Assembly: GCA_026770705.1 (NCBI GenBank)
Contig: JANJGN010000021.1
Coordinates: forward strand, 98,952,001-99,016,000
Direction: 5' to 3'
DNA length: 64,000 nucleotides
Origin: Isurus oxyrinchus
Taxonomy: Eukaryota
Numbering within the stretch: position 1 is the stretch's first letter; every line of letters starts with the position of its first letter. Below the pieces are notes generated by a model. That model did no database searches and was not told where the DNA came from. It saw nothing but the letters and a program-made list of their open reading frames with translations. Both the position numbers and the translations under genes were made by a program. This document shows, one piece after another, positions 3,045-64,000 of this stretch.

Positions 3045-3096
3045 CGGGAGAGACCCAGGAAAAACACAGGGAGATGGAGAAAAGGATCAGCAACAT
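3045..3096 (-). CDS. MHC class I-like gene A, exon 1 (signal peptide MLLILFSISLCFSWVSP); remaining exons lie left of the window
   Basis: 52-nt ATG-to-GTAAGT phase-1 exon, identical to the leader exons at 13376 and 51581. Confidence 0.85.
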
Positions 3097-3159
3097 TCTG
3101 GGAATCCACTCTCCCTGTTCCAATCAGAGACTGGGAATGAAACACTCTGAGGGGGGAAA

Positions 3160-3345
3160 CTAATACTTTTTATAGACTGGGAAAAACAAAACAAAAACAA
3201 GCTTATCGAGGATCCATTTCACTATTTCAGTTGCACTTTGATCATTTCCTGATTATAGAACCAGAAGGTGAATGATTGGTTAGTTCCAGAAAAATACCCA
3301 ATTAACTGGATAAACAGTCACTCGTCACCTGTTACCAGGAGGATC
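3160..3345 (-). promoter_or_regulatory. Gene A promoter: X1/X2 box, Y box (ATTGG), second CCAAT, TATA
   Basis: Minus strand reads CCTGGTAACAGGTG-ACG...ATTGG (CCAAT at 3298-3302 on +); TATAAA near 3170; the block is conserved upstream of the B and C leaders. Confidence 0.7.
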
Positions 3346-3460
3346 AAACTGAGACAAGTTAAAATTTTGGGTGCAAGCAAACAACAACTTATATTTATAT
3401 AGCACCTTTCACCGAATGAAACGTCCCCCAGATGCTTCAGGGGAACATTATAAAACAAAG

Positions 3461-5899
3461 CAAAAACAGAATTACCTGGAAAAACTCAGCAGGTCTGGCA
3501 GCATCGGCGGAGAAGAAAAGAGTTGACGTTTCGAGTCCTCATGACCCTTCGACAGAACTTGATTTCGAGTCCAAGAGTTGAAATATAAGCTGGTTTAAGG
3601 TGTGTGTGTGGGGGGGCGGAGAGAGAGAGAGAGACAGAGGTGCTTGTGTAGACAAACAAGCAGTGATAGAAGCAGATCATCAAAAGATGTCAGGGACAAT
3701 GGTACAAAAGAACACATAGTTGTTAAAGTTAAAGTTGGTGATATTATCTAAACGAATGTGCTAATTAAGAATGGATGGTAGGGCACTCAAGGTACAGCTC
3801 TAGTGGGGGTGGGGGGAGCATAAAAGATTTTAAAATATTTAAAAATAATGGAAATAGGTGGGAAAAGAAAAATCTATAAAATTTATAGGGAAAAAAAGGG
3901 GAAAAAAGGGGGGGAAACAGAAAGGGGGTGGGGATGGGGGAGGGAGCTCACGACCTAAAGTTATTGAATTCAATATTCAGACCGGAAGGCTGTAAGGTGC
4001 CTAGTCGGAAGATGAGGTGTTGTTCCTCCAGTTTGCGTTGGGCTTCACTGGAACAATGCAGTAAGCCAAGGACAGACATGTGGGCAAGAGAGCAGGGTGG
4101 AGTGTTAAAATGGCAAGCCACAGGGAGGTTTGGGTCATTCTTGCGGACAGACCGCAGGTGTTCTGCAAAGCGGTCGCCCAGTTTACGTTTGGTCTCTCCA
4201 ATGTAGAGGAAACCACATTGGGAGCAACGAATGCAGTAGACTAAGTTGGGGGAAATGCAAGTGAAATGCTGCTTCACTTGAAAGGAGTGTTTGGGCCCTT
4301 GGACGGTGAGGAGAGAGGAAGTGAAGGGGCAGGTGTTACATCTTTTGCATGGGCATGGGGTGGTGCCATAGGAGGGGGTTGAGGAGTAGGGGGTGATGGA
4401 GGAGTGGACCAGGGTGTCCCGGAGGGAGCGATCCCTACGGAATGCCGATAAGGGGGGTGAAGGGAAGATGTGTTTGGTGGTGGCATCATGCTGGAGTTGG
4501 CGGAAATGGCGGAGGATGATCCTTTGAATGCGGAGGCTGGTGGGGTGATAAGTGAGGACAAGGGGGACCCTATCATGTTTCTGGGAGGGAGGAGAAGGCG
4601 TGAGGGCGGATGCGTGGGAGATGGGCCGGACACGGTTGAGGGCCCTGTCAACGACCGTCGGTGGAAAACCTCGGTTAAGGAAGAAGGAGGACATGTCAGA
4701 GGAACCGTTTTTGAAGGTAGCATCATCGGAACAGATGCGACGAAGGCGAAGGAACTGGGAGAATGGGATGGAGTCCTTACAGGAAGCGGGGTGTGAGGAG
4801 CTGTAGTCAAGGTAGCTGTGGGAGTCGGTGGGTTTGTAATGGATATTGGTGGACAGTCTATCACCAGAGATTGAGACAGAGAGGTCAAGGAAGGGAAGGG
4901 AAGTGTCAGAGATGGACCACGTGAAAATGATGGAGGGGTGGAGATTGGAAGCAAAATTAATAAATTTTTCCAAGTCCCGACAAGAGCATGAAGCGGCACC
5001 GAAGTAATCATCGATGTACCGGAGAAAAAGTTGTGGAAGGGGGCCGGAGAAAAAGTTGTGGAAGGGGGCCGGGGTAGGACTGCAACAAGGAATGTTCCAC
5101 ATATCCCATAAAGAGACAGGCATAGCTGGGGCCCATGCGGGTACCCATAGCCACACCTTTTATTTGGAGAAAGTGAGAGGAGTTGAAGGAGAAATTGTTC
5201 AACGTGAGAACAAGTTCAGCCAGACGGAGGAGAGTAGTGGTGGATGGGGATTGTTCGGGCCTCTGTTCGAGGAAGAAGCTAAGGGCCCTCAGACCATCCT
5301 GGTGGGGGATGGAGGTGTAGAGGGATTGGACGTCCATGGTGAAGAGGAAGCGGTTGGAGCCAGGGAACTGGAAATTGTTGATGTGACGTAAGGTGTCAGA
5401 GGAATCACGGATGTAGGTGGGAAGGGACTGGACAAGGGGAGAGAGAAGGGAGTCAAGATAACGAGAAATGAGTTCTGTGGGGCAGGAGCAAGCTGAGACG
5501 ATCGGTCTACCAGGGCAGTTCTGTTTGTGGATTTTAGGTAGGAGATAGAAGCGGGCCGTCCGAGGTTGGGTGACTATCAGGTTGGAAGCTGTGGGAGGGA
5601 GATCCCCAGAGGAGATGAGGTCAGTGACAGTCCTGGAAACAATGGCTTGATGTTCAGTGGTGGGGTCATGGTCCAGGGAGAGGTAGGAGGAAGTGTCTGC
5701 GAGTTGACGCTCAGCCTCCGCGAGGTAGAGGTCAGTGCGCCAGACAACAACAGCACCACCCTTGTCAGCGGGTTTGATGACAATGTCAGGGTTGGATCTG
5801 AGAGAATGGAGTGCAGTAAGTTCAGAGAGAGACAGGTTAGAATGGGTGAGAGGAGCAGAGAAATTGAGACAACTAATGTCGCGCCGACAGTTCTCAATG
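3461..5899 (-). mobile_element. Penelope-like retroelement (RT + GIY-YIG, Neptune-type), 5'-truncated, inserted into an L2 3' end
   Basis: RT motifs DVQSLYTSI, GVAMGTRMGP and LRYIDD; Cys linker PCPCKRCNTC; GIY-YIG NLVYCIRC..LYIGET. A 25-bp duplication at 5019-5068 shifts the frame. 13-bp flanking repeat TTATAAAACAAAG at 3448-3460 and 5914-5926. Confidence 0.95.
3520..3560 (-). ncRNA. Minimal type I hammerhead ribozyme-like motif at the Penelope terminus (variant core)
   Basis: AGTT-CTGTCGA-A-GGGTC(ATGAG)GACTC-GAAA-CG-TC-AACT: stem I, core, stem II and minimal stem III; A6 is replaced by U. Confidence 0.6.
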
Positions 5900-5926
5900 T
5901 TATTAAAACAAAGTTATAAAACAAAG

Positions 5927-6270: not shown

Positions 6271-8462
6271 GTCATGTGCAGAGAGCCCAGTGTGGGGGTT
6301 CTGGAATGAGTCGTGTGCAGAGAATCTAGTGGACTCCCTCTGCTGACATTCCTCCTGTTAGTTTCATTTCCCCCTGTTGCAGGGTACTATTAACGATAGA
6401 ATTGATCTGCAGACACTTCTTGAGTGGAAACATTAAGTTTTACAATATACTGAGCAACAACTACACAACTTTCAACTCCAACTCCCTGCTACTCTCCCAT
6501 TGGTTATGACAGATCACATGATCTTCCTTAACACATCCTATTCTTAAAGGTACATTGCACACTAAATAAAATCATAACTACTACCTTCCTCCCCCTTTAA
6601 CTCACCTACACCTGTCATATCGACAAGTAGTTATTTTTCAAGCTAACATAATATTTACACTGGGTGAGGAATTTACAAGTTCAGTCTTTTAGTTGGTTTC
6701 TGGTACGTGTGGAACGTCACAGCTCCACAACTTCAGATTCTTTGTCAAGAACCTGCTTTTCCGGAGTTGCCTGAACATAAGGTGCTTCAGTGGGCACTTC
6801 CAGTTCTGTATCCTCAACTCTTACAGGAACATCAGGCATGTCAGTCCTGGGTTGAGTATTCTCAACAGGAAACACAGACCTGGTCATGATCACTGGTGGA
6901 ACCAAATCTTGGTGATTTGTTCTCTCACATAAATGGTCCACAGGTTTATGGATGATCCGGCCTTCCACCTCCACATGGTAAAATAGACATCCAGTCACCA
7001 CACTTATTTCACCCGGTAACCACTTTGGTCCCCCCCTGAAATTTTTCACATATACCGGTTCTCCCACGGTAAATTTCCTCTCGCGACCATGCCAGTCGTG
7101 TCTAGTTTTCTGGCTTCCTTGACTCCTTTCCACCTTCCCCTCTAAATTCAACATTATTAAGTTCAATCTCGTCCTGAGATAGCATTTCAACAATAACTCC
7201 ACAGGTGTGACACCTATTCTCATGTGAGGGGTGGCTCTGTAATGAAAATGCGAGTGTGCTAGCTTGGTTGCCAAGGAATCTCCAGTTAGCATTTTCACTC
7301 CTGCCTGGAACGTTTGAACCACCCTTGCAGCCAGTCAGTTTGAGGGAGGGTGGTACGTTGCAGTTTTCTCATAAGTGATACCGTTGAGGCTGATAAACCA
7401 TTGAAACTCAGCACTTGTAAATGCCGTGCCATTATTGGAAATGACTACTTCTGGTAGTCCATGAATGGAGATTCTCAATTGCAGCGCCCGATATTGGTGA
7501 CTTCATCTCATGTACATCCAACCATTTTGAATGGGCATCGACAATGAGCAGAAACATTTATCCCAAGGAAGGGCCAACGTAGTCAATATGTAACCGCACC
7601 CAAGATCTACCTGGCCACTCCCGGGGGTGTGACAGAGCTGTCACTGGCAACTTTTGCAGTTGCTGACATTGCACACAGTGCTTTACTAAACTCTCTATTT
7701 TGCCATCCATCCCAGGCCACCATAGACAGCTGCATGCTATGGTCTTCATTCGGGAAATTCCTGGATGGGCATTGCGTAGTTCAATTAAAAGTGGCTCCCT
7801 TCCCTTTGGAGAAATCATCACTCGTGGACCCTACAATAAGATGCCATCCTGGCTGGTTATTTCATGTCTTCTGTTGAAGTACGGTTTCATTTTGTCAGAT
7901 ATGGGCCCCTGTAATCAACCTTGTAGCACTTGTGGTGGCTCTGTACGTACTGGTGAAATTTCTTGACACCAATGATGATGGACAGTTCTTCTTTTTCAAT
8001 CTGCAAGTATCCCTTTTCCACTGTGGTGGGCGTTCTTGACACGTAACCGATGGGCCACTCCATGCTGTCATCCATCTGATGAGAGAGCACTGCTCCCACT
8101 CTGTAGGGAGGTGCGTCACATGTCAGCACCAATTCTTTTGTCTGGTTGTAATGCACTATTAAACTGGACAAGAGCAACAATTATTTCACCTATGAAAGCT
8201 TCTTTCTGGGCCACCTCCAAGACCAAGGTTGGTTCTTTTTGAGTAGAGAATGCAAGGAGGCCAGCACTGTAGACAAATTTGGTAAGTACCACCCATAATA
8301 GTTGATCATTCCTGGGAATGATTTGAGCTCTGAGGCATTCTTTGGTGCAGGTGCCTCTCTTATGGCTCTCACTTTCTCCTCAGCCAGGTGGAGGCCCCCT
8401 GAATCTACCCGGTGACCCAATTAGATTAACTCCCTCACTAGGAACTTGCACTTTTCTTTTCT

Positions 8463-11189: not shown

Positions 11190-12783
11190 TGTATCAATTA
11201 TCATATCTGTATCTGGCAAAATGAAACCGTACTTCAACAGAAGACATGAAATAACCAGCCAGGATGGCATCTTATTGTAGGGTCCACGAGTGATGATTTC
11301 TCCAAAGGGAAGGGAGCCACTTTTAATTGAACTACGCAATGCCCATCCAGGAATTTCCCGAATGAAGACCATAGCATGCAGCTGTCTATGGTGGCCTGGG
11401 ATGGATGGCAAAATAGAGAGTTTAGTAAAGCACTGTGTGCAATGTCAGCAACTGCAAAAGTTGCCAGTGACAGCTCTGTCACACCCCCGGGAGTGGCCAG
11501 GTAGATCTTGGGTGCGGTTACATATTGACTATGTTGGCCCTTCCTTGGGATAAATGTTTCTGCTCATTGTCGATGCCCATTCAAAATGGTTGGATGTACA
11601 TGAGATGAAGTCACCAATATCGGGCGCTGCAATTGAGAATCTCCATTCATGGACTACCAGAAGTAGTCATTTCCAATAATGGCATGGCATTTACAAGTGC
11701 TGAGTTTCAATGGTTTATCAGCCTCAACGGTATCACTTATGAGAAAACTGCAACATACCACCCTCCCTCAAACTGACTGGCCTCAAGGGTGGTTCAAACG
11801 TTCCAGGCAGGAGTGAAAATGCTAACTGGAGATTCCTTGGCAACCAAGCTAGCACACTCGCGTTTTCATTACAGAGCCACCCCTCACATGAGAATAGGTG
11901 TCACACCTGTGGAGTTATTGTTGAAATGCTGTCTCAGGACGAGATTGAGCTTAATAATGTTGAATTTAGAGGGGAAGGTGGAAAGGAGTCAAGGAAGCCA
12001 GAAAACTAGACACGACTGGCATAGTCGCGAGAGGAAATTTACCGTGGGAGAACTGGTATACGTGAAAAATTTCAGGGGGGGACCAAAGTGGTTACCGGGT
12101 GAAATAAGTGTGGTGACTGGATGTCTATTTTACCATGTGGAGGTGGAAGGCTGGATCATCCATAAACCTGTGGACCATTTATGTGAGAGAGACAAATCAC
12201 CAAGATTTGGTTCCACCAGTGATCATGACCAGGTCTGTGTTTCCTGTTGAGAATACTCAACCCAGGACTGACATGTCTGATGTTCTTGTAAGAGTTGAGG
12301 ATACAGAACTGCAAGTGCCCACCGAAACACCTGATGTTCAGGCAACTCCGGAAAAGGAGTTTCCTGACAAAGAATCTGAAGTTGTGGAGCTGTGACGTTC
12401 CACACGTACCAGAAATCACCTGAAAGACTGACCTTGTAAATTCCTCACCCAGTGTAAGTATTATGTTGTCTTGAAAAATATGTACTTGTAGATATGACAT
12501 GCGTAGTTGAGTTAAAGGGGGAGGAAGGTAGTAATTATGGTTTTATTTAGTGTGTAATATACCTTTAAGAATAATACTAGTTAAAGAAGATCACATGATC
12601 TGTAGTAAGCAATGGGAGAGTAGCAGGGGCCACCTCAGCTGTCAGTGCAGCGATAGAGTTGGAGTTGAAGGCACACGTGTAGTCACTACTGAGTATATTG
12701 TAAATAAATTTAATGTTCCCACCCAAGAAATATCTGCATTTCAACTCTATCGCTAATAGTTCCAACTCAGCCACCCTACAACA
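11190..12783 (+). mobile_element. Internally deleted Gypsy copy (5' LTR stub, integrase, 3' LTR), inverted relative to 6375-11123
   Basis: Integrase ORF 11290-11553 gives the same protein as 7558-7821; PPT and LTR at about 12527-12783; putative TSD GACTC/GACTA. Confidence 0.88.
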
Positions 12784-12788
12784 GACTA

Positions 12789-12903
12789 CCTCCCCTCACT
12801 CTCCTCCTGTTAGTTTGACTGCCTCCCCTCACTCTCCTCCTGTTAGTTTGACTGCCTCCCCTCACTCTCCTCCTGTTAGTTTGACTCCCTCCCCTCACTC
12901 CTC
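12789..12903 (+). repeat. 33-bp minisatellite (CCTCCCCTCACTCTCCTCCTGTTAGTTTGACTG)
   Basis: About 3.5 tandem copies; related units flank both Gypsy insertions (about 6350 and 11125-11189). Confidence 0.85.
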
Positions 12904-13375: not shown

Positions 13376-14520
13376 ATGTTGCTGATCCTTTTCTCCATCT
13401 CCCTGTGTTTTTCCTGGGTCTCTCCCGGTAAGTACAGAATTCAGCCCTCCATTCTCACTCTCACTCTCTCTCTCTCTCTCTCTGGGGTTAATTGGAATCT
13501 TTTGGTGAGAGTTTGAAATGGGTGATGTTTGATCAGCCGCCTGTTATACAGCCAGTCTGATATTTTACACCATTGAAGTCAGCACAGTCTGTAACACTCT
13601 GATGGGATTTGTGTCCAACTCTCCTGACAGCAGGATGTAGAAACCCCGAGAGCAGAGAAGTTTGGAACAAATGGAAAATGGTTCAAATGGGCACTTCTAA
13701 TTTTCACATCGATTGGGAGAAGCAAAACAGTTTCATCACTCCTGGTCTAAAGCCTTCAAAACACTATGGAGAGGAGAAGGATAATCCATGTTTAACCCAC
13801 CCCAGGATCAGCTGTGATGCCCTCATGGTTGAATAGGCCAGGTTATCTCAGACCACCAACATCCTCCTGACCCTGTATAAAGGGGTGATTAAAAAGCTCT
13901 GTGAGGGACAGTGGAGATCCTGCTCTGGATTGTCCATCACCCTGTTTGACAGTCAGACTGTTCATACAATGACTGCCCCCCCCACTATGCTATCACACTT
14001 CATCCTCCCAAAGATTCCTCTTTCTCTTCATTTCAATCTGGAATTCACTCACACCACATGTTTCCTGGTTATGATGATAAACAACAGACCTGCCCTCAGG
14101 TTATCCTGAATTCCTCACTCCAGATGTTCTCTGGTCAGGAGGGTCTGCTCAATATCTCTCTCCAGATGTTCTCTTGTTCCAGGTTAGTGATAGACTGGGT
14201 GTGTCACAAGTTACTGTTCCAGGTTAGTGATCTTCTGTTTAACACTCTAACCCCGGATTGTGCCCCAGACTCTCCCACGTGTTCACACTTACTCCATCGG
14301 GTGTCTGAGTGACTCTGATTCCTGGTTTGCTCCCTGTTCTGAGAGGCTGCAGCATCTACTTCTGACCCAGTTTAATCAGATTCTGTTTATAATATCAAAC
14401 AGGATTCTGTATTGTGATAAAGTGGTGGATTATTGGAGATTGTCCCTGTGTGGATGGGCCTCACTTTAATCAGGTGGCAGTGTGTGGAAATGTTTATTAA
14501 CCTGTCCCTTTAATTGTTTA

Positions 14521-14900: not shown

Positions 14901-14926
14901 CCTTTAATTGTTTAATTGTTTTACAG

Positions 14927-15030
14927 GAACTAACACATTTACAGTGATTTTCATGGCATTATTGATATCCCTGAGGTTTCTGTTATTAGCATAGTAAGAG
15001 AGGTTCAGGGAGATTTTTCTGATGCTCATG
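14927..15030 (+). pseudogene. Truncated extra alpha1 exon stub (D-type)
   Basis: Follows a TTTTACAG acceptor; reads TNTFTVIFMA / IDIPEVSVISIV, aligning with D alpha1 INAFSVIFTA..NDIPKVTGAAVV; frameshifted. Confidence 0.65.
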
Positions 15031-15185
15031 TTGGTTTTGATTAAAGTGTCACTTTAACTGTTTGCTTCACAGACACTAACTCACACACAATGATATACAT
15101 TGTAACCTCCGGTAAGGAAGATTTTCCTGAGGTCACTGTTGCTGCGATAGTCAGTGGAGTCCAAACAGGTCATTATGACAGTGAT

Positions 15186-15420
15186 AAAAACAAAAAAACT
15201 GCGGATGCTGGAAATCCAAAACAAAAACAGAATTACCTGGACAAACTCAGCAGGTCTGGCAGCATCGGCGGAGAAGAAAAGAGTTGATGTTTCGAGTCCT
15301 CATGACCCTTCTACAGAACTGAACCCTTCTGTTGAAGGGTCATGAGGACTCAAAACGTCAACTCTTTTCTTCTCCACCAATGCTGCCAGACCTGCTGAGT
15401 TTGTCCAGGTAATTCTGTTT
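15186..15420. mobile_element. Fold-back element made of two inverted Penelope termini, inserted in B alpha1
   Basis: Inverted arms AAAACAGAATTACCTGGACAAACTCAGCAGG... and ...CCTGCTGAGTTTGTCCAGGTAATTCTGTTT; 16-bp TSD TCATTATGACAGTGAT at 15170-15185 and 15421-15436. Confidence 0.9.
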
Positions 15421-15629
15421 TCATTATGACAGTGATGTCCATCAGTGCGACCCCAGGCAGCAGTTCATGGCTGAATATTTCAGTGTGAAACACTGGGACT
15501 ATGTCTCAGATCTGATAAGCTCACATTCACACCTGGCAAAGGAGAATCTGAATACAATACTGAAGATGACAAACCAGACATCTGGTAAGATCACAATGTA
15601 GAAACTCATTGTTGATTGTCCCCCATTAT

Positions 15630-16432
15630 ACCCAGTGCCACTCCACTCAGCCCATCCCCCAGCTCCGACCCCTGCCTCACTCCAGTCAATCCGTCTGCCA
15701 GTGCTGACCCATGGGTCACTCCACTCAGCCCATCCCCCAGCTCTGACCCCTGCCTCACTCCAATCAGTCCGTCTGCCAGTGCTGACCCATGGGTCACTCC
15801 ACTCAGTCCATCTCCCAGCTACGACACCTGGGTCACTCCAATCAGTCCACCTCCCAGCACTGACCCCTGGGTCACTCCAATCAGTCCATCTCCCAGCAGT
15901 GACCCTGGGTCACTCCATTCAGTCCATCTCCCAGCAGTGACCCTGGGTCACTCCATTCAGTCCATCTCCCAGCACTGACCCCTGGGTCACTCCAATCAGT
16001 CCATCTCCCAGCACTGATTCCTGGGTCACTCCACTCAGTCCATCTCCAACATTGACCCCTGGGTCACTCCAATCAGTCCATCTCCCAGCAGTGACCCTGG
16101 GTCACTCCATTCAGTCCATCTCCCAGCACTGACCCCTGGGTCACTCCAATCAGTCCATCTCCCAACACTGACTCCTGGGTCACTCCATTCAGTCCATCTC
16201 CCAGCTCTGACCCCTGGGTCACTCCACTCAGTCCATCTCCCGGCTCTTACCCCTGGGCACTCCACTCAGTCCATCTCCCGGCACTGACCCCTGGGTCACT
16301 CCACTCAGCCTGTCTCCCAACACTGGCACCTGGGTCACTCCACCCAGCCCATCTCCCAGCACTGACCCTGGGTCACTCCAGTCAGTCCATCTCCCAACCC
16401 TCACCCTGGGACACTCCACTCAGTCCATCTCA
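15630..16432 (+). repeat. 38-39-bp minisatellite (CAGCACTGACCCCTGGGTCACTCCACTCAGTCCATCTCC) in B intron 2
   Basis: About 20 tandem copies; the same repeat occurs in D intron 2 at 61828-62035. Confidence 0.9.
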
Positions 16433-17294
16433 CAGATCAGACTGTGACTCTATTCCCCCATTTCTATCTGATACTAGATCCCCTTTTCCCTCTGATCAGG
16501 CAGTTTGTGACTGCCTATTAACTATTGATTCTTGATCTCTATTTGGTCACTGACAGGAATTCACACTCTTCAATGGATTTGGTCTGTTGATGTCGCTGAA
16601 GACGACTCCATTAAGAAATCGATGCGAGTTGGATTTGATGGAAAGGACTTTATTAGTTTAGAGCCAGGCAGAATGAGATGGGTCACAACCAATCACATTA
16701 CAGTGAAGACTAAAGAGAAATGGGATTCTGATAAATCCTGGAACAAATACTGGCAAACCTATCTTCAGGAAGTATATGTTCAGCATTTGAAGAAACATTT
16801 TTGAGCTGGAAAGAAATATTTCAAAAGGAAAGGTATTTATCAGTTTGGATCCCATGTTCTGATCTAACTTCACTGGTTTATGAAAGCGTTCTCCCCTTCC
16901 ATTCAGTGTCTGTCTATTGTTTGTGTTTTCACCCTTTCCCATTACAGTTCAGCCTGAAGTGTTCATCTCCAGAAGTGACCCCAATAGTCAGTACAAGCCG
17001 CTCACTCTCTCCTGCCTGGCTACTGGATTTTAACCTGTAGACATTGAGGTGAGCTGGCTAAGGAATGGAGAAGTAATGTCTGAGACACTATCTTCGGGGG
17101 TTCGACCCAACCACGATGGGACCCATCAGATCCAGAAAGAGATTGAAATAAATGCTGGGGATGAGGATCAATACTCCTGTCAAATTGAACACAGCAGCCT
17201 GGCAGAGACCCAGCACTCTCAGTGGGGTAAGGAACAGTACTGTGTGTATGTGTGTGTTTATGTGTGTGCTTCTTGAGCCTGTTCCACCATTCAA

Positions 17295-18225: not shown

Positions 18226-21200
18226 GTTTGTAGAGTTCTTGCAGTTTTTATCATTTAATTGTTCATTGAAGATTTAATGGGTAATGAAGTGAAGATCCTG
18301 TTAATGGGTTTATGGGTTGGTCAGGGGTGGATGATGTCAAGTGGTGGTAAAATTCAGTTCCCTTTGAAGACACACTCACTAAGTGTTTGTAAAGATCCCT
18401 TCTCTGCACCCGACACCGTGAGGGTGTGAAATTGTCCCCAAACTACCCAACAAGTCTTACCCAATCCAACAAAGACACACAAAGTGCTCTTTATTTGACA
18501 TGTCTGTTTAGAGTGAGATGGGTCATAATGTCTGGCAGTGTTCATTACCCACGGGTGGAGTGGTCTTTCTAAAGGATCTGAATGAGGATGAAGAGAGGGT
18601 CAGACAGCTGCTGGGAATCAGTAATACGTCACTGAGTGGTGACCAAGCAGATATTGGAGTGAGGAAAGGTGAGTGTCAGCAGCTGGATGTTTAAACCAGG
18701 TCTGAGCACACGAACTTCTGTGATGTGACAAAGGAAGGTGAATCATCATTGTAAATGTTTTCTCCTGACAGGTGCTGTCTTTGGACACAGCGCCTGGAGA
18801 TGGTGGTGAATCAGTGAGAGCAGCCCAGGGGGTTGAAAGGGAACCTGGTGAAGACACTGAGCCCCGCGTCACAGAGGGAAGTGAGACACTAACTGAGCTG
18901 GCCAGGCAAGGGGAGTGACATCCAGACAAACAGGAGGGTGAGCACCCTGGGTGGGAGGGCAGGTAGAATGACACTGTCTCTCCTGCCCCCATGTTGTACC
19001 GTCAGTGTGTTAATGCGGGGAGTGTCCGAGACTGGGATCATACTCTGATCACCAGCTCTCCATCTCCAAGCCCCTTTGATCTGAGCGAGGCATTAGGACA
19101 GACATGAAGATGATGACGTGGAGTTACTGGGAGGATGTGTGATAAACCGGTCTGATCTGTCGGGTGGTGAGGAACCTCCAACATTTCAAGTACTTGCTCC
19201 ATGCTCCTCAGTGACTCATGGACCACATGAGCCCCATGTTGACACTCCGGTGGAAGAGGCGATCATTCCAGAACAGAGGAATGTACTGGTGGCTCCACAT
19301 GACAAACACCTTGACCCCCTGTATTTGAGCAGACAGGAGATGAGGGAGTTTAAGGCAAGTGTTTATCAGCAATTGACCCTTTGTATAAAAAGCATTCCTG
19401 ACCCATTGACCCATCTCAATCCTTATACCCACATGAAGGATGCTGTAAGGTGCCATAACCAGAGCTCAATAACACATGAGCTATATACAGCTGGTCCGGC
19501 AGTGATACAAATAACCCCAGTAGAGCCACTCCTGACAGCTCCAAGTACAGAAACAGAGCAGGACCACGAGACAGCAGCTGGATGCAGCTTCTGGTCAGCA
19601 GCTCCCCAGTGAGGAGTTATCAGCTGCTGGGCGTGTCTCTGTCACAAGTGGGGGCAGGACACGGGTACGGGGAAGATGCAGGGGGCATTAGGGTGGCAGC
19701 TCTTGCAGAGTGGACATCTTTATCTCCCCCTCTCCCCCTTTGTGTTAGTAACCCTCAGGCGCAGAGGGTGGGGGGAGGAGGTTTGTTGCTGTTACATTTT
19801 GAGGAAATGTTTGTGTTGTCTTATTTAATGAGAATTCTATTTGTAAATTATAAATTGTTGGTGTTCTATTTGAATTTGTTCTTGTTCTATTTACTGGAGT
19901 CACTCTAAATAATTCAAAGTAGCTTTTATTGACATGAAACATTTAAGATTACAACAATTTACTTCGAAAAATAACTCATTAACATAAATGTTACGTAATG
20001 TTTTAGACCAATTTTCTGAGGTTTACATTGTTCAACACTGATTACCTTGAAGGTTTTGCAATGGGGATTTGCTGTTAAAATAAAATGTCACTTGTTTCAC
20101 TCTCCATCTACACTGATCTTTGGTCTGATTTCCTGGGGGAGGGAGAGGGATTTTCTCCCTCCCAATGTCCAAATGTATCAGCCCCCAGCTGCTCTCCAGC
20201 TGCCCCGACAGCTGCAGTCGGAGTTTCCTCAGCTTCTCCGTGAGGCCTGGATCCAGTCACATCCATGTGGATCCTCCATTCCATCGATTTCTGGAACAAT
20301 CTGGTCAGTGAGGTGAAGGGTCAGTCCTTCCTGCAGGGGAAAGTTGTACAATGGGGAAGAGACCAACACAATCCCCGACACTTTAACAGGAGAGGGTTGC
20401 AGAGTGACACCTCATCTGTCCAAGCAATTCACCAACCTGATTGTCCTCTCCACCAGTAGCCCATTTGTGCCTTGCTAAAGATTAATATACAATTGACAAA
20501 TAAAATACATTTCAACATTTGAAATGGCTGAACTCACTGTTCTGAAAGTTCTGCTCACTTCTTACCTGCTTGGAATGATGAGCGCTGGTTCTAAACCTGA
20601 CTGAAGCACTCTGAACATTTCTTGGGGATAAACCAACTGTATTTGTGGGTAATGAATCCAAATTCTCGAATTCCACATCCTGCTGTTTTCAGTGGCAGAT
20701 TGGTGAAAGTTTCAGAGGTTGAACAGGGGAGTGTGGTGTGATACAGCAGCTTCTGGGTTTTGTCATGACAGTGCACGTGTGTGCACATCGGGCAAGGCCC
20801 AATGCAGTGATGTCCAATAATGACAAACATTGAATATGCCTCTGTTATTGCAAATGCAAATAAGGGGCACTGTTCCTGCACCTGTCTACATGACTTTCTT
20901 ATACTGATGAATCTAGACATCTGTGTACATATCTCCTTGTACATTAATTTGTATGTGTGTGTATCTGGATATGTCTAACTTTGTAGCTATACGTATTTAT
21001 ATATCTCTTTCACTGTATGTGTGTTTATTTGTATTTGTGTTTGTGTGTATACTGATGTCTTAAACTTTGTATCTATATCTGTTTGTGAGCATCTCTCCCT
21101 CTCCATTAATGTGTGTGTGAGAATGTGTGTGTATCTTGTGTGTACTGTGCGTACCTATATCTGTGAGTGTACATCTCTCTCTGTACATTAGTTATGTATG

Positions 21201-26213: not shown

Positions 26214-26246
26214 TCTGAGCTGTTGTGTAGGTCACACTTGGTGAAT
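26214..26246 (-). CDS. Gene C cytoplasmic exon (DSPSVTYTTAQ)
   Basis: 33-nt exon between TTCTGCAG and GTAAGT; carries a YxxA motif like class I exon 6. Confidence 0.8.
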
Positions 26247-27096: not shown

Positions 27097-27216
27097 CTCT
27101 GCTTTGCCATTTCCAAATGATTGTTCCGATTATCCCAAATATAGCAAGCAGTGCTGCGATCACGAGTCCAATTATAATCCCAAGTTGTGAGTGTCCCACA
27201 CCGTTTTCTGGGATTT
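27097..27216 (-). CDS. Gene C connecting peptide/transmembrane exon
   Basis: 120 nt with AG/GT borders; EIPENGVGHSQLGIIIGLVIAALLAIFGIIGTIIWKWQSR. Confidence 0.9.
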
Positions 27217-30546: not shown

Positions 30547-30825
30547 CCCACTGATAGAGCTTGCTCTCTGCCACGCTGCTGTGTTCAATTTGACAGGAGT
30601 ATTGATCCTCATCCCCAGCATTTATTTCAATCTCTTTCTGGATCTGATGGGTCCCATCGTGGTTGGGTCGAACCCCCGAAGATAGTGTCTCAGACATTAC
30701 CTCTCCATTCCTTAGCCAGCTCACCTCGATGTCTACAGGATAAAACCCAGTAACCAGGCAGGAGAGAGTGAGCGGCTTGTACTGACTATTGGGGTCACTT
30801 CTGGAGATGAACACTTCAGGCTGAA
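30547..30825 (-). CDS. Gene C alpha3 exon (Ig C1-set)
   Basis: 279 nt, open: VQPEVFIS..LSCLVTGFYPVDIEVSW..RPNHDGTHQ..YSCQIEHSS. Confidence 0.95.
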
Positions 30826-30942: not shown

Positions 30943-31217
30943 CTCTTCTTCTGAGATATTCCTTTCCAACTTGTAAATATTTCTTTAAGAGGCCAATGAG
31001 TTCTTCTTCCAACTGCCATTCCCAATGCTTGTTCCAGGATTCATCCAAATTCCATTTCTCTTTTATCTTCACTGCATTGGGATTAGTTGCGACCATCTCA
31101 TTCTGTCTGGCTCTAAACTAATATAGTCGTTCCCATCAAATCCAAACCGCATCAATCTCTGAACAGAGCCATCTTCAGTGACGTTGACAGTCCTTATCCA
31201 TTGTAGGATGTGAAATC
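30943..31217 (-). CDS. Gene C alpha2 exon with a 1-bp deletion at about 31093
   Basis: 275 nt versus 276 in B; GFHILQWIRTVNVTEDGSVQRLMRFGFDGNDYISLEPDRMRW / VATNPNAVKIKEKW..LLKKYLQVGKEYLRRR. Confidence 0.9.
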
Positions 31218-31529
31218 CTGTCAGTAACAAAACAGAAATCAGCAATCAATAATTCACTGCTTGTTAGAAACGCCTTCTTGCAATTCAGACAGGACAATTT
31301 CAGTGGAACCCACTTGGTAAGGAAATTGACAGGGCAATGTGCAACACTGGTCCAACATCCCGTTAGATTTTACACTAAATTGAAGCTAGCAGAGAACAAC
31401 ATGGAATGTGGTGCAAATCCAGCTTTCCACTCAGTCCGTTAGCTTGATGGTCTAATGCGTTATGTTAAAATTACTGCAGTTTTGGGAAATAATCACACAG
31501 GAGAGAGTTACAAACTGATTCTGGCCACA

Positions 31530-34500
31530 GTCTGATCAAAGGGAAAGGGGATCTAGTATCAGAAAGGAATGAGGGATTAGAGTCACAGTCTGATCTGAGT
31601 GGAGAAGGGATCTAGAATCAGATAGAAATGGGAGATAAGAGTAACAGTCTGATCAGAGAGGAAAGGAGATCTAGTATCAGATAGGAATGGGGGATTAGAG
31701 TCACAGACTGATCGGGGGAAAGGGTATCTAGTATCAGGTGGAAATGGGGGAATAGAGTCACAGTCTGATCAGAGGGGAAAGCGGATCTAGTACCAGATAG
31801 AAATGGGAGATTAGAGCCACAGTCTGATCAGAGGGGAAAGGGAAACTAGTATCAGATAGAAGTGGCGGATTAGAGTGACAGTCTGATCAGAGGGGAATGG
31901 GGATCTAGTATCAGATAGAAATGGGGGATTAGACTCACAGACTGATCGGAGGGGCGAAGGGATATAGTATCAGATAGAAATGGAGGATTAAAATCACAGA
32001 TCGATCAGAGGGGAAATGAGACCTAGTATCAGATAGAAGTGGGGGATTAGAGTCACAGACAGATCAGTGGGGAAAGGGGATCTAGTCGCGGAAAGGAATG
32101 GGGGATTAGAGTCACAGTCTGATCAGAGGGGAGGCGGGATCTAATATCAAATAGAAATGGGGGGTTAGAGTCACAGTCTGATCAGAGGAGAAAGCAGATC
32201 TAGTATCAGACAGAAATGGGGGATTAGAGTCACAGTCTGATCAGAGGAGAAAGGGTATCTAGTATCAGATAGAAATGGGGGATTAGAGTCACAGTCTGAT
32301 CAGAGGAGAAAGGGTATTTAGTATCATAAAGGAATGGGGGATTAGAGTCAAAGTCTGATCAGAGGGGAAAGGGGATCTAGTATCAGATAGAAATGGGGGA
32401 TTAGAGTAACAGTCTGATCAGAGAGGAAAGGAGATCTAGTATCAGATAGAAATGGGGGATTAGAGTCACAGTCTGATCAGAGGGGAATGGGGATCTAGTA
32501 TCAGACAGAAATGGGGGATTACAGTCACAGTCTGTTCAAAGGGGAAAGGGGATCTAGTATCAGAAAGGAATTGGGTTTTGAGACAAAATCTGATCAGAGG
32601 GGTAAAGGGATTTACTATCGGATAGAAATGGGGGGTTAGAGCCACAGCGTGTTCAGAGGGGAAAGGGTAACTTGTATCAAATAGAGATGGGGGATTAGAG
32701 TTATAGTATGATCACAGGGGAAAGGTGATCTACTATCAGATAGTAGTGGGGGATTAGAGTCAGTGACAAATCAGAGGGGAAAGGAGATCTAGTATCGATA
32801 GAGAAGGGGTTTAGAGTCACAGTCTGATCAGAGGGGAAGGGGATCTAGTATCAGAAAGGAATGAGGGATTAGAGTCATAGTCTGATCTGAGTGGAGAAGG
32901 GATCTAGTATCAGATAGAACTGGGAGATTAGAGTGACAGTCTGATCAGAGAGGAAAGGAGATCTAGTATCAGATAGAAATGGGGGATTAGAGTCACAGTC
33001 TGACCAGAGGAGAATGGGTATCTAGTATCAGAAAGGAATGGGGGATTAGAGTCAAAGTCTGATCAGAGGAGAAAGGGGATCTAGTTTCAGATAGAAAAGG
33101 GGATTAGAGTCACAGTCAGGTCAGAGGCGAAAGGTAATCATGTCAGATAGGAATGGGGGATTAGATTCACAGTCTAATCAGAGGGGAAAGGAGATCTAGT
33201 ATAAGATAGAAATGGGAGATTAGAGTCACAGTCTGATCAGAGGGGAAAGGGGATCTAATAGCTGATAGAAATGGGGGATTAGGTTCAGTGTCTGATTAGA
33301 CGGGAAAGGGGATCAAGTATCAGATAATAATGAGGGATTATAGTCACAGTCTGAGCAGAGGGCAAAGGGGATCTAGTATCATAGAAATGGGGGATTAGTG
33401 ACACAGTCTGATCAGAGTGGAAAGGGGATCTAATATCAGAGATAAATGGGGGATTAGAGTCAATGTCTTATTAGAGGGTCAAGGCGATCTTGTATCAGAT
33501 AGTAGTGGGGGATTAGAGTCACAGTGTGATCAGTGGGGAAAGGGCATCGAGTATCAGATAGTAATGGGGGATTAGAGTCACAGTGTGATCAGAGGGCAAA
33601 GGTGATCTAGTATCAGATAGAAATGGGGCATTAGAGTCACAGTTTGATCAGAGGGAAAAGGGGATCTAGTATCAGATAAAAACGGGGACTGGAGTCACAG
33701 TCTGATCAGAGTTTGAAGGGGATCTAATATCAAATGGAAATGGGGGATTCGAATAACAGTCTAATCAGAGGGTAAAAGGGGTCTAGTTTCAGATAGAAAT
33801 GGTGGATTCGAGTCACAGTCAGTTCAGAGTGGAAAGAGGATCTAGTATCAGATAGGAATGGGGGATTAGAATCAGTCTGATCAGAGGGGATGGGGGGTCT
33901 AGTATCAGACAGAAATGGTGGGTGAGAGTCACAGCCTGATCTGAGGGGAAAGGGGATCTAGTATTAGATAGAAATGGGGGATTAGAGTCAGTGTCTGATC
34001 AGAGGGGAAAGGGGATCTAGGTATCAGAAAGGAATGGGGGATTAGAGTCACAGTCTGATCAGAGGGCAAAAGGGATCTGTTATCAGATAGAAATGGGGCA
34101 TTAGAGTCACAGTTTGATTAGAGGGGAAAGGGGATCTAGTATCAGATAGAAATGGGGGATTGGAATCACAGTCTGAGCAGAGTGGAAAGGGGATCTAATA
34201 TCAGATAGAAATGGGGGATTTGAGTAACAGTCTAATCAGAGGGGAAAGGGGGTCTAGTTTCCGATAAAAATGGGAGATTAGTGTCAAAGACAGTTCAGAG
34301 TGGAAAGGTGATCTAGTATCAGATAGGAATGGGTGATTAGAATTAGTCTGATCAGAGGGGAAGGGGGGTCTAGTATCAGATAGAAATGGTGGGTGAGAGT
34401 CACAGCCTGATCTGAGGGGAAAGGGGATCTAATATTAGATAGAAATGGGGGATTAGAGTCAATGTCTGATCAGAGGGCAAAGGGAATCTAGTATCAGATA

Positions 34501-36545
34501 GAAATGGGGCATTAGAGTCACAGTTTGATCAGAGGGGACAGGGGATCTAGTATCAGATAGAAATGGGGGATTGGAATCACAGTCTGAGCAGATTGGAAAG
34601 GGAATCTAAAATCAGATAAAATTGGGGGACTAGAGTAACAGTCTAATCAGAGGGGAAAGGAGGTCTAGTTTCAGATAAAAATGGGGGATTAGAGTCAAAG
34701 ACAGTTCAGAGTGGAAAGGGGATCTAGTATCAGATAGGAATGGGGCATTAGAGTCACAGTTTGATCAGAGGGGACAGGGGATCTAGTATCAGATAGAAAT
34801 GGGGGATTGGAATCTGTCTGATCAGAGGGGAAGGGGGTGTAGTATCAGATATAAATGGGGGGTTAGAGTTACAGTCTGATCAGAGAGGAAAGGGGATTTA
34901 GTATCAGAAAGTAATGGGGGATTAGAGTCACAGTTTGATCAGAGGGGAAAGGAGATATAATATTCGATAAATATGGGAGATTAGAGACACAGTCTGATCG
35001 GAGGGGGGAAAGGGATATAGCATCAGATAGAAATGGGGTATTGGAGTCACAGTCTGATCAGAGGGGAAAGGGCATCGAGTATCAGATTGAAATGGGGGAT
35101 TAGAGTCACAGTTTGATCAGAGGGGAGAATGGGATCTAGTATCAGATAGAAATGGGGGGCTAGAGTCACAGTTTGTTCAGAGGGGAGAATGGGATCTAGT
35201 ATCAGATAGAAATGGGGGGCTAGAGTCACAGTCTGATCAGATGGGAAAAGGGATCGAGTATCAGATAGAAATTGTTGATTAGCGTCACAGTCTGATCAGA
35301 GGGGAAATGCGATTTCGTATCAGACACGAATGGGGGATTAGAGTCACCGTCAGATCAATGGGGAAAGGGGATCTAGTTTCAGATAGAAAAGGGGATTAGA
35401 GTCACAGTCTAATCAGAGGGGAAAGGAGATCTAGTATAAGATAGAAATGGGGGATTAGAGTCACAGTCTGATCAGAGTGGAAAGGGGATCTAATAGCTGA
35501 TAGAAATGGGGGATTAGAATCAGTGTCTGATTAGATGGGAAAGGGGATCTAATATCAAATAGTAATGAGGGATTAGAGTCACAGTTTGATCAGAGGTGAA
35601 AGGGGATGTAGTATCAGATAGTAATGGGGGATTTGAGTCACAGTCTGATCAGAGGGGAAAGGAGATATAATATCAGATAAAATGGGTGATTAGAGTGACA
35701 GTCTGATCAGAGGGGAAAGGGCATCGAGTATCAGATAGAAATGGGGGATTAGAGTCACAGTCTGATCAGAGGGGACAAAGGGATCTAGTATCAGATATCA
35801 ATGGGGGATTGGAATCACAGTTTGATCAGAGGGGAAAGGGGATATAGTATCAGATAGAATTGGGCATTAGAGTCACAGACAGATCAGAGGGGAAAGGGGA
35901 TCTAATATCAGATAGAAATGGGGGTTTAAAATCACATTCTGATCAGAGAGGAAAGGATATCTAGTATCAGATAGAACTAGGGGGTTAGAGTCACAGTCTG
36001 ATCAAAGGGGAGAGGAGATCTTGTATCAGAATGTAATGGGGGATTAGAGTCACAGTCTGATCAAAGTGGAAAGGGGATCTTCTATCAGATAGAAATGGGG
36101 GGCTACAGTCACAGTCTGATCAGAGGGAAAAGGTATCTAGTATCAGAAAGGAATGGGGGATTAGAGTCATAGTCTGATCAGAAGGGAAAGGGGATCTAGT
36201 ATCAGATAGAAATGGGGGATTAGAGTCACCATCTGATCAGAGGAGAAAGGAGATATAATATCAGGAAAATATGGGGGATTAGAGCTCCGAGTCTGATCAG
36301 AGGGAAGGAAGTGATCTCGTATCAGATAGAAATGAGGGATTAGAGTCACAGTCTGATCAGAGGGGAAAGGGGATCTAGTATCAGATAGAAATGGGGGATT
36401 GGAGTTACAGTCTGATCAGAGGGGAAAGGGGATCTAGTATCAGATTGAAATGGGGGATTGGAATCACAGACAGATCAAAGGGGAAAGGGGATCTAGTAAC
36501 AAATAGAAATGGGGGATTAGATTCACAGTCTGATCAGAGGGATGA
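31530..36545. repeat. 59-bp satellite array in intron 2 of gene C
   Basis: Unit AGTCACAGTCTGATCAGAGGGGAAAGGGGATCTAGTATCAGATAGAAATGGGGGATTAG; about 85 copies from span divided by unit length. Confidence 0.95.
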
Positions 36546-41839: not shown

Positions 41840-42100
41840 CAGCCGTGTGGTTCATCCCTTCCGTGATCGTGTTAAAAGTCTTGTTCATTACGTCGTAACG
41901 TTCCTTTCCCAGGCGGTTGAGGTAATCCCAGTTTTCCACATTCAGATAGTCCGTTATGAACTGCTGCCTGGAAGCCATCTGCATGGTGTCACTGTCATAA
42001 TAGGATAACATTACTTCATTGAGCATTGCCACACCTACAAACTCAGGGCGATCAGGAATGCCGGAGGTTCCCATGTACAGCACTGTGAAGGAGTCAGTGT
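41840..42100 (-). CDS. Gene C alpha1 exon
   Basis: 261 nt, open: DTDSFTVLYMGTSGIPDRPEFVGVAMLNEVMLSYYDSD..ENWDYL..MNHTAG, with the N86 sequon. Confidence 0.93.
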
Positions 42101-51529: not shown

Positions 51530-51581
51530 CGGGAGAGACCCAGGAAAAACACAGGGAGATGGAGAAAAGGATCAGCAACAT
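51530..51581 (-). CDS. Gene C leader exon (MLLILFSISLCFSWVSP)
   Basis: Identical to the A and B leader exons; GTAAGT donor. Confidence 0.9.
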
Positions 51582-60625: not shown

Positions 60626-60629
60626 ATGC

Positions 60630-61018
60630 AGTCCGAAGCCTGGCCCACATTGCCCAGAGGGTTCGAAGCCTGGTCCACATTGCCCAGGGGGTCTGAAACC
60701 TAGCCCACAAGGCCCAGAGGGTCCAAAGCCTGGCCCACAAGGCCCAGAGGGTCCGAAGCCTGGTCCACAAGGCCCAGGGGGGTCCGAAGCCTGGCCCACA
60801 AGTTCCAGAGGGCCCGAAGCCTGTTCCACAAGGCTCAGGGGGTCCGAAGCCTGGCCCACAAGGCCCAGAGGGTCCAAAGCTTGACCCACAAGGCCCACAG
60901 GTTCCAAAGCCTGGCCCACAAGGTCCAGGGGGTCTGAAGCCTGGCCTACAAGGCCCAGCGGATCTGAGGCCTGGCGCACAAGGCCCAGAGGGTCCAAAGC
61001 CTGGCCCACAAGGCCTAG
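60630..61018 (+). repeat. 30-bp GC-rich tandem repeat (GGTCCGAAGCCTGGCCCACAAGGCCCAGAG)
   Basis: About 13 copies; abuts MHC intron-1 homology at 61019. Confidence 0.9.
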
Positions 61019-61322
61019 AGGTTAGTGATCTTCTGTTTAACAGCAAAGGGATTGTGCCCCAGATTCTCCCACGTGTCCACACTGACTCCATCGGGTGTCT
61101 GAGTGACTCTGATTCCTGGTTTGCTCCCTGTTCTGAGAGGCTGCAGCATCTACTTCTGACCCAGTTTAATCAGATTCTGTTTATAATATCAGACAGGATT
61201 CTGACATTGTGATAAAGTGGTGGATTATTGGAGATTGTCAGTGTGTGGATGGGCCTCACTTTGATCAGGTGGCCGTGTGTGGAAATGTTTATTAACCTGT
61301 CCCTTTACTTGATCTTTTACAG

Positions 61323-64000
61323 ATATCAATGCATTTAGTGTGATTTTCACAGCAACCTTTGGGATTAATGACATTCCCAAGGTTACTGGTGCTGCAGTGG
61401 TCAACGGTGTCATCATCGGTAATTATGACACTAATCTCAGTCGGACGATCCCTAAACTGCAGCTCATGGTTGACTATTTCGCTGTGGAATAATGGGAATA
61501 TATCACAAGCCTAGAGAAAGCATGATCAACTGTAGCAAAGGAGGATCTGAATATGATGATGAAGATTACAAACCAGACATCTAGTAAGATCAGCAATACA
61601 GAATCTCCCACTGCCTGTCCTCTTTAATTTGTGCCAGGCTGGTACCCAGCCATAGTTAACCTGCAGACTGTGACACCGGGATATATGGTGTGTGAGACAG
61701 CATGAATCGAGGCATAAGATGGGGCTATGATGATATTTCCGCACTGTCCTGATTGCGAAATGGCAGAGTGAAGCAAATCAGAGGTCAGGGCAGCTAGATG
61801 GCCTGAGTTAAGTGAAGATGGTAATTCCCAGCACTGACCCCTAGGTGACGCCACTCAGTCCATCTCCCAGCACTGACCCTGGGTCACTCCACTCAGTCCA
61901 ACTCCCAGCACTGACCCTGGGTCACTCCACTCAGTCCATCTCCCAGCACTGACCCTGGGTCACTCCAATCAGTAAAGCTCCCAGCACTGACCCCTGGGTT
62001 ACTCCACTAAGTCCATCTCTCAGCACTGACCCTTGTGTCACCAAGTCCAGTAGTCAACTTTAACTGGAAACACTTCTGATATTTCAGTTTATTATTAGAT
62101 CCCCTTTCCTCTCTGATCAGACTGTGACTCTAATCCCCCATTTATATCTGATACCAGATCCCCTTTCCCCTCTGATCAGACTATGACTCTCACAACAAAA
62201 ACAGAATTACCTGGAAAAACTCAGCAGGTCTGGCAGCATCGGCGGAGAAGAAAAGAGTTGACGTTTCAAGTCCTATTGACCCTTCGACAGAACTTGAGTA
62301 AGTCCAGGAAAGGGGTGTTCTATCTAATACTAGATCCCCTTTCCCCTCTGATCAGACTGTGACTCTAAACCCTCATTTATATCTGATACTAGATCCCTTT
62401 GCCCCTCTGCACAGACTGTGACTCGAATCCCCCATTTCTACCTGACACTAGATCCCTTTCCCTTTTGATCAGACTGTAACTCGAATCCCCCATTTCTACC
62501 TGACACTTGATCCTTTTTTCCCCTCTGATCAGACTGTGACTCGAATCCCCAATTTCTATCTGATACTAGATTCCCTTTCCCCTCTGATCAGACTGTGACT
62601 TTAAACCCTCATTTATATCTGATACTAGATCCCTTTGCCCCTCTGCACAGACTGTGACTCGAATCCCCAATTTCTATCTGATATTAGATCCCCTTTCCCA
62701 TCTGATCAGACTGTGACTCTAATCCCCAATTTCTATCTGATACTCGATCCCCTTTCACCTCTGATCAGACTGTGACTCTAATCTCCAATTTCTATCTGAC
62801 GTTAGATTCCCTTTCCCTCTGATCAGACTGTTACTCTATCCCCAATTTCTATCTGATACTCGATCCCCTTTCCCCTCTGATCAGACTGTGACTCTAATCC
62901 CGCATTCCTATCTGATATTAGATCCCCTTTCCCCTCTGATCAGACTGTGACTCTAATCCCCCACTTCTATGTGCTACTAGATTCCCTTTCCCTCTGATCA
63001 TACTGTTACTCTATCCCCAATTTCTATCTGATACTCGATCCCCTTTCCCCTCTGATCAGACTGTGACTCTAATCTCCAATTTCTATCTGACGTTAGATTC
63101 CCTTTCCCTCTGATCATACTGTTACTCTATCCCTAATTTCTATCTGATACTCGATCCCCTTTCCCCTCTGATCAGGCTGTGACTCTAATCTCCAATTTCT
63201 ATCTGCTATTAGATCCCCTTTCCCCTCTGATCAGACTGTGACTCTAATCCCCCATTTCTATCTGTTACTAGATACCCTTTCCCCTCTGATCAGATATTTT
63301 GTGATTATCTGTTAGCTATTGGTCTCCTGTTTGGTCACTGACAGGAATTCACACTCTTCAATGTATTTGGTCTGTTGAGATCACTGAAGACGGCTCCATT
63401 AAGAGATCGATGCAGTTTGGATTTGATGGAAAGGACTATATTAGTTTAGAGCCAGACAGAATGAGATGGGTCGCAACCAATCACTTTGCAGTGAAGATGA
63501 AGGAAAAATGGGATTCTGATAAATCCTGGAACAAATACTGGCAAATACATCTGCAAGAAGAATGTGTCCAGTATTTAATGCGGAATTTAAGGTTGGAAAG
63601 GAATATTTTGAAGGGAAACGTATTTATTTCAGTTTTGTTCCCATGTTCTGATCTAACTTCACTGGTCTATGAAAGTGTTCTCCCATTCCATTCAGTGTCT
63701 GTCTATTGTTTGTGTTTTCACCCTTTTCCATTACAGTTCAGCCTGAAGTGTTCATCTCCAGAAGTGACCCCAATAGTCAGTACAAGCCGCTCACTCTCTC
63801 CTGCCTGGTTACTGGGTTTTATCCTGTAGACATTGAGGTGAGCTGGCTAAGGAATGGAGAGGTAATGTCTGAGACACTATCCTCGGGGGTTCGACCCAAC
63901 CACGATGGGACCCATCAGATCCAGAAAGAGATTGAAATAAATGCTGGGGATGAGAATCAATACTCCTGTCAAATTGAACACAGCAGCCTGGCAGAGAGCA
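61323..64000 (+). pseudogene. Nonclassical MHC class I gene D: alpha1 61323-61583, alpha2 63345-63619, alpha3 63737->64000; no leader found
   Basis: alpha1 has TAA at 61490 and TGA at 61523; alpha2 is 275 nt (1-bp deletion near 63589); alpha3 is nearly identical to B and C. Confidence 0.92.
62095..63293. repeat. 59-bp satellite in D intron 2, with a Penelope terminal fragment at about 62191-62317
   Basis: Reverse complement of the 31530-36545 unit (same sense relative to the gene); about 18 copies. Confidence 0.9.

Follow-up and report, generated by a model that had tools for sequence, protein, structure and literature searches.

The stretch of Isurus oxyrinchus DNA analysed here, 64,000 nucleotides of contig JANJGN010000021.1 (C21:98952001-99016000; the window), very probably spans the junction between UDA, a single-copy major histocompatibility complex (MHC) class I gene, and a strand-alternating multicopy array of a second class I lineage, most likely UEA, in which birth-and-death of whole genes is combined with exon-limited gene conversion that crosses lineages. 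The window holds three class I genes (B, C and D) and one lone leader exon (A). Exon searches over its 64 kb confirmed the class I exons where they had been predicted and their strands, -,+,-,+, although three alternations within the window alone have a chance of 1 in 8.

The original prediction, made from the letters of the window, had taken A to D for four paralogues. The strands stand, but A is the leader exon of UDA, a different and older family, and is no paralogue of B, C and D. Inside the window A consists of the 52-base leader only, and its alpha1-3 exons lie 12-23 kb further left:

2832..3362, minus strand: UDA promoter, exon 1 and intron 1 block, shared with UEA copies (85-93% over ~380-580 bases)
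3045..3096 (52 bases), minus strand: UDA exon 1, the leader (exon search, X4 and X7 contigs, trees)
C21:98942.3-98942.6k, 98935.1-98935.4k and 98932.1-98932.4k, left of the window: UDA alpha1, alpha2 and alpha3 (exon search, trees)

Contigs from two sequencing runs, X4 and X7, connect the leader letters to UDA alpha1; the 28 joined letters are common to several copies, and the nearest copy on the correct strand is A. The alpha1-3 exons match a sequence labelled Gici_UDA in supplementary material of PMC10751288, are only 29-48% identical to exons of C and D, and cluster with the UDA of sharks, rays and chimaeras in the tree of each domain (support 98/95 for alpha1, 100/98 for alpha2, and 98/90 for an alpha3 clade without the chimaera row). 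UDA keeps Y59, R84, K146, W147, Y159 and Y171 as well as the alpha2 disulfide C101-C164, and one UDA-type alpha1/alpha2 was found among 33 MHC_I matches and the fetched loci, genome-search counts being lower bounds. Directly to its left is a UFA-like gene that groups with UFA in the trees, and the leaders of UDA and B stand head to head, 10 kb apart. The assembly has two frameshifts in UDA, at L010:567 (alpha1) and at L009 ~100 (alpha3 end). The first, an extra base, is an assembly error, absent from all three runs that cover it; the assembly thus contains false indels, and its single-base indels cannot be trusted on their own.

The evidence that conversion crosses lineages comes from exon 1. 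The 52-base exon of UDA is identical to that of seven of nine UEA copies, and the dead copies B, E and I carry the same exon. Around the UDA ATG, identity is unbroken for 154 bases with G and 134 bases with B, and the shared block has 12 matches in the genome, none of them at UAA, UBA, UFA or UGA. The intron 1 sequence shared by A and B had been seen as a sign of inverted duplication of these two, a reading that fails, as the intron 1 block of A is closer to E (92.6% over 528 bases) and I (90.8% over 532) than to B (85.2% over 541). This same leader is present in every one of the nine leader-bearing shark UDA proteins, whose range runs from Heptranchias and Pristiophorus to Carcharodon. Ray UDA leaders are related but diverged, while that of dogfish UCA is different, and it is therefore likely from these comparisons that UEA acquired exon 1 from UDA. 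The exchange also appears to be repeated within species. Across eight shark species that have both genes (three short leaders left out), the leader of UDA differs from UEA leaders of its own species by a mean of 0.52 residues as opposed to 1.70 for other species, a value reached by 12 of 40,320 permutations; the domains of UDA and UEA show no own-species effect (34,970 of 40,320 for alpha1, 25,320 of 40,320 for alpha2 and 439 of 720 for alpha3). Species variants shared by the two leaders include R14 in bamboo sharks and Heptranchias, L6 with T8 in Pristiophorus, and L6 in Hemiscyllium. No report of exon-1 sharing or conversion between shark UDA and UEA was found in a literature search that had most subscription journals outside its reach.

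Within UEA, the copies of this genome resemble each other to very different degrees from exon to exon. Mean identity is 98.8% in exon 1 (10 copies, with UDA), 95.9% in alpha3 (10 copies, H and K left out), 89.9% in intron 3, 81.7% in alpha2 and 68.6% in alpha1 (12 copies each), and fourfold-site differences, counted in the 10, 7 and 8 indel-free copies, are 334/953 in alpha1, 67/316 in alpha2 and 29/989 in alpha3. The trees, from which 10 fragmentary, fused or isoform shark proteins and non-chondrichthyan hits were excluded, differ accordingly. In the alpha1 tree (98 rows), UEA falls into clades of 8 rows (99/99, the clade of C), 13 rows (100/98) and 53 rows (98/70, unstarred), plus one Heptranchias row; old clades, that of C among them, extend across squalomorph and galeomorph sharks. 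The alpha3 tree (93 rows, two of 95 having been removed because they had no alpha3) sorts instead by taxon, with all 26 lamniform rows (100/93), 22 carpet-shark rows (96/80), 3 Heterodontus rows (100/96) and 16 carcharhiniform rows (94/89, unstarred); the copies of this genome sit among the lamniform sharks, and the lamniform and carpet-shark groupings hold whatever the alpha1 of their rows. Alpha1 by ancient sublineage and alpha3 by taxon is the pattern of gene conversion. Birth-and-death decay had been proposed for these genes, and copies do die as described, but conversion of exon 1 and alpha3 had been missed. The pairs C/H and F/K are 99-100% identical in alpha1 and just 95% and 91% in alpha2 (F/K alpha2 over 238 bases), a further sign of patchwork exchange. 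Copy-specific minisatellites are confined to intron 2 (90/90 and 252/252 hits in a 514-kb region), at the border of the unconverted alpha1 and the remainder of the gene.

The probable mechanism is pairing between inverted neighbours, whose near-identical ends would exchange tracts of short length. Conversion would then keep exon 1 and alpha3 near-identical while the ancient alpha1 grooves stay distinct, and exon 1 with its promoter would be exchanged even with UDA. Whole-gene duplication and loss would continue alongside, pseudogenes may serve as conversion donors, and a deletion in C (see below) may have moved between C and its dead inverted twin H. The intact copies are predicted to be beta2-microglobulin-binding surface proteins with a common alpha3, shared expression control and a groove of their own each, whose peptide presentation would not be of the classical anchored type.

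Three other accounts have to be weighed. According to the first, UDA took the UEA promoter and exon 1 once, recently and in this lineage, and the cross-species pattern is chance or annotation artefact. The head-to-head position of UDA and B at 10 kb suits this, and database models may misplace a repeated exon; however, the leader is present in every leader-bearing shark UDA protein and has relatives in ray UDA, and we regard the account as improbable. Strong purifying selection alone, for example on the leader peptide or on beta2-microglobulin binding, might also keep exon 1 and alpha3 similar: the leader protein is nearly fixed across sharks, and alpha3 is normally the most conserved domain of class I. 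However, silent sites and non-coding flanks are equally alike (the 154 unbroken bases and the alpha3 fourfold sites given above), species-specific residues are common to different genes, and dead copies have the same exon 1. Silent-site identity has already largely refuted this explanation, to which we give very little credence. Four decaying paralogues of one, possibly undescribed, sublineage, as first proposed, can hardly be maintained: B and D are dead, strands alternate and anchors have been lost in B, C and D, but the proposal is refuted for A, which is UDA, and for C, which is intact and spliced in run X16, and B, C and D fall in clades with annotated genes of other sharks.

Several observations weigh against exon-limited conversion in a UEA array beside UDA. 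The leader test compares protein models from databases, each 17 residues long, some of which could share one physical exon; it covers no DNA and is uncorrected for kinship (Chiloscyllium and Hemiscyllium are relatives); in Heterodontus, the UDA and UEA leaders differ at residue 16 (C versus Y). The DNA tree of the shared block, built without one orphan leader, has no starred branch, with just 90/87 for UDA and E. Domain trees are short (~90 columns) and carry long-branch warnings. The query that matches the array is labelled Gcirratum_UCA, and UEA was assigned without any UEA-labelled sequence. A crude groove hydropathy over 37 positions (UEA mean 0.34, classical-like 0.07 and 0.35, UDA -0.66) did not separate UEA from classical-like genes. 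On this scaffold, 18 Mb separate the array from class II and 33 Mb separate it from UAA, as opposed to ~1.4 Mb from BRD2 in white shark. Finally, lesions of copies beyond the window, like those of B and D and the UDA alpha3 frameshift, are read from assembly letters only, in an assembly with false indels.

As to the identity of the array, shark UEA is said to have been described by Almeida et al. in 2021 as a multicopy nonclassical class I lineage without conserved anchors and with a hydrophobic groove; it reportedly has three groove sublineages and is confined to sharks, being absent from rays and chimaeras. B, C and D are most likely UEA by position and sequence, in any case a published multicopy nonclassical (MHC-Ib) shark lineage beside UDA. 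C matches the nurse-shark query Gcirratum_UCA in alpha1, alpha2 and alpha3 (PMC10751288, supplement), a label that we take as a working name for UEA, and its white-shark orthologue, LOC121291255, is marked MHC-Ib and lies on the MHC chromosome in a cluster near BRD2 and B2M. The MHC-Ib cluster is described, in the portions of PMC10751288 consulted, as single-copy UDA with multicopy UEA and UFA. With a published query matched in all domains and an orthologue in a described cluster, the possibility of an undescribed sublineage falls away. The expectation of a nonclassical, multigene, anchor-less shark lineage in birth-and-death turnover is upheld by the trees, the anchor counts and the array; separate alpha1, alpha2 and alpha3 trees place B, C and D outside UAA, with annotated genes of other sharks, only A grouping elsewhere, with UDA. 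Anchors have been lost in B, C and D, and the classical peptide-terminus anchors are not conserved in the lineage: among 63 database members, Y7 is kept in 0, Y59 in 24, R/Y84 in 11, T143 in 47, K146 in 57, W147 in 63, Y159 in 12 and Y171 in 44. Both alpha2 cysteines are kept in 0/63, and B, C and D lack C101. The loss of C101 and a clade separate from UAA led us to reject classical UAA as their identity. Orthology to dogfish Sqac-UCA was likewise rejected, since it falls outside the B/C/D clade in alpha1 and alpha3 and inside it, on a long branch, in alpha2. Among the 116 hits of a word-limited search, the B/C/D clade contained no row from a ray or chimaera, a weak absence. A search of the PDB matched generic class I relatives only, and PMC6523485, from the part seen, concerns trout genes of identical names rather than shark lineages.

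Linkage to the MHC, which had been put forward as a check, is borne out by other genes of the scaffold. It carries class II alpha and beta, a BET gene, UBA-like and UGA-like genes and classical UAA (C21:66.13 Mb); class II beta gave no match anywhere in a Pfam search, and class II was later located by tblastn. The array is flanked by two UGA-like and several UBA-like genes, at C21:98.45-98.55 Mb and 99.64-100.28 Mb. An orphan, frameshifted copy of the shared leader lies at C21:80384824-80385011, between class II genes and 115 kb from the BET gene. The idea that this match (C21:80.38 Mb) is beta2-microglobulin was rejected: the leader has a shifted frame, and the 40 kb downstream of it yielded no class I-like exon. 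On C16, an apparently intact, intron-bearing UEA gene occupies C16:53762651-53783172 (L047-L049); another leader and the remnant of a tail lie at 53.57-53.59 Mb. The orthologue of this gene, P0037 (alpha1 identical), is apparently on the white-shark MHC chromosome, so that the C16 gene is either mis-scaffolded or an exception to the rule that all MHC-Ib genes lie in the MHC.

The array continues beyond the window: 13 UEA units follow UDA on C21 over ~370 kb, with strands, UDA included, of -+-+-+-++-+-+-; 12 of 13 neighbours alternate (p=0.0017 against a fair coin). Low-copy 24-mers shared in inverted orientation link the pairs C/H, E/L and F/K, so that expansion by inverted duplication, as originally proposed, is supported by these links but not for A and B. 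Turnover is evident across the 13 units in the assembly: the leader, alpha1-3 and transmembrane exons are all open only in G, J and L, C has one lesion, and nine are broken or partial. Copy I is broken in this assembly, and its white-shark model is whole. In copy L (C21:99225990-99306335), intron 2 measures 80 kb and contains 244 hits of a 38-39-base repeat; alpha1 and alpha2 of L both match white-shark P0038, so that L is one gene.

Within the window, B and D are dead in the ways first described, B by an insertion and two stops, D by stops, a frameshift and the loss of its 5' end:

13376..13427, plus strand: B exon 1, identical to UDA exon 1
15073..15584, plus strand: B alpha1, split by an inverted-repeat insertion of 251 bases, its target site of 16 bases duplicated (15170 and 15421)
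15639..16435: B intron 2 minisatellite, 20.6 copies of a 39-base unit
16557..16832, plus strand: B alpha2, with TGA at 16802-16804
16948..17226, plus strand: B alpha3, with TAA at 17031-17033 and no transmembrane exon after it
61323..61583, plus strand: D alpha1, with TAA at 61490 and TGA at 61523
61826..63294: 38- and 59-base minisatellites in D intron 2 (repeat search)
63345..63619 (275 bases), plus strand: D alpha2, with a 1-base deletion near 63589
63737..64000 (continues beyond the window end), plus strand: D alpha3, open

Transmembrane and tail exons of B were looked for and none was found on its strand, and a search upstream of D alpha1 found no leader. The model of the white-shark counterpart of D, P0102, stops at the same alpha2 residues and begins out of frame, and the white-shark model P0101 runs on across the alpha1 donor site that is likewise dead in F and K; these matched deaths are therefore likely to predate the split of the two shark species. 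A Penelope-like element at 3455-5913 has reverse transcriptase and GIY-YIG domains, both below the Pfam cut-off, and an end sequence that resembles the arms of the B alpha1 insertion. Between the UDA and B leaders, two inverted 1.4-kb retroelement-like fragments (6484-7901 and 11210-12628) are 96.4% identical. The stretch 14921-15020, just 5' of B alpha1, resembles by eye the decayed start of a second alpha1 exon, and the intron before it is a 94% match to that of D.

Copy C is a different case. Its exons are as follows:

51530..51581, minus strand: C exon 1, identical to UDA exon 1
41840..42100, minus strand: C alpha1, open, of an ancient sublineage
31526..36541: 59-base minisatellite in C intron 2, 85.3 copies
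30943..31217, minus strand: C alpha2, one base short at 31092/31093 in the assembly and full length in X7 and X16 contigs
30547..30825, minus strand: C alpha3, open
27097..27216, minus strand: C transmembrane exon, open
26214..26246, minus strand: C short cytoplasmic exon, ends from the match to the exon of D
20165..20331, minus strand: C last coding exon, ends approximate

C alpha1 is 70-73% identical to orthologues of Heterodontus, Chiloscyllium and Pristiophorus, and it belongs to the clade of 8 rows. In the assembly, the 1-base deletion at 31092/31093 is the sole lesion in leader, alpha1-3 and transmembrane exon, as had been claimed, but of the four runs compared over C alpha2-alpha3, two (X7 and X16, from two studies) contain the missing base. 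A contig of X16, which like X7 we guess to be RNA (RNA is on record for no run), has C alpha1, alpha2 and alpha3 joined over a GT-AG intron of 117 bases and shows a single further difference. What the assembly holds of C is thus likely the null allele of a gene that works, and not a decayed copy or fixed pseudogene. The deletion itself could be an assembly error and C simply an intact gene, a possibility of some weight although we doubt it: the site is a short G run, the comparable extra base in UDA alpha1 proved false, and X7 and X16 hold the full frame. Conversely, a 325-base contig of X4 is identical to the assembly across the site, reaching 30 letters past it (one short of our bridging rule); a bridging contig of X1 also has no such base, its 5 substitutions being all those of H, yet 5 further H differences in range are absent; and H carries the same deletion. 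The deletion thus exists in short-read data, and its location at C itself is less sure.

The MHC-Ib cluster and the decay of its copies are ordinary and known; what is added is the sharing of exon 1 across lineages, a modest addition with several implications. Birth-and-death and concerted evolution appear to work on separate exons within single genes, and conversion to cross a boundary between lineages that predates the radiation of sharks. The lineage or sublineage of a gene cannot be told from its leader or alpha3 sequence, probes or primers placed there would mix UDA with UEA, and automated gene models do fuse the two (P0001). Pseudogene calls from single-base indels in this assembly require read checks. 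C, a gene of the oldest UEA sublineage, seems to occur within a single species both as a working and as a null allele, and this would be a natural test of function. More speculatively, and we think probably wrongly, UEA may have arisen by taking the promoter and leader of UDA, conversion then keeping this module on about a dozen otherwise unrelated grooves across all sharks, for co-expression of the complete MHC-Ib set or for a leader peptide shown to killer cells, with UDA, whose anchors are kept, as candidate presenter. If true, leader-peptide display like that of HLA-E/Qa-1 would exist in the oldest branch of jawed vertebrates.

Compared with known systems, gene A behaves as chondrichthyan UDA does, in one copy, with its anchors kept and in the same clade as nurse shark, ray and chimaera UDA in three domains (Gici-UDA, PMC10751288 supplement; protein P0009), except that it has an identical exon 1 in common with the adjoining UEA genes. 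B, C and D share with dogfish UCA (Squalus acanthias, P0112) the absence of C101, and UCA also lacks C164 and most anchors; UCA alpha2 falls inside the UEA clade (long branch), but its leader differs and its alpha1 and alpha3 lie outside the B/C/D clade. As UEA is said to do, the array shows three main alpha1 groups without ray or chimaera rows and an alpha2 related to dogfish UCA. Like shark UEA it is also multicopy, sits in the MHC-Ib cluster with UDA and UFA, and has mostly lost its anchors (PMC10751288, PMC12562908). In contrast, the portions of text seen of these two papers mention neither the alternating strands, nor the sorting of alpha3 by taxon, nor an exon 1 shared with UDA, and the defining paper may or may not report them. 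A parallel is mammalian HLA-E/H2-Qa1, where concerted evolution among class Ia and Ib loci is described in the part of PMC1397804 consulted. There too conversion occurs within species and includes introns, pseudogenes are possible relays and the groove keeps its lineage; however, in the shark the shared piece is limited to exon 1 and its flanks (UDA and UEA are 56-73% different in alpha1-3), and neither partner is classical.

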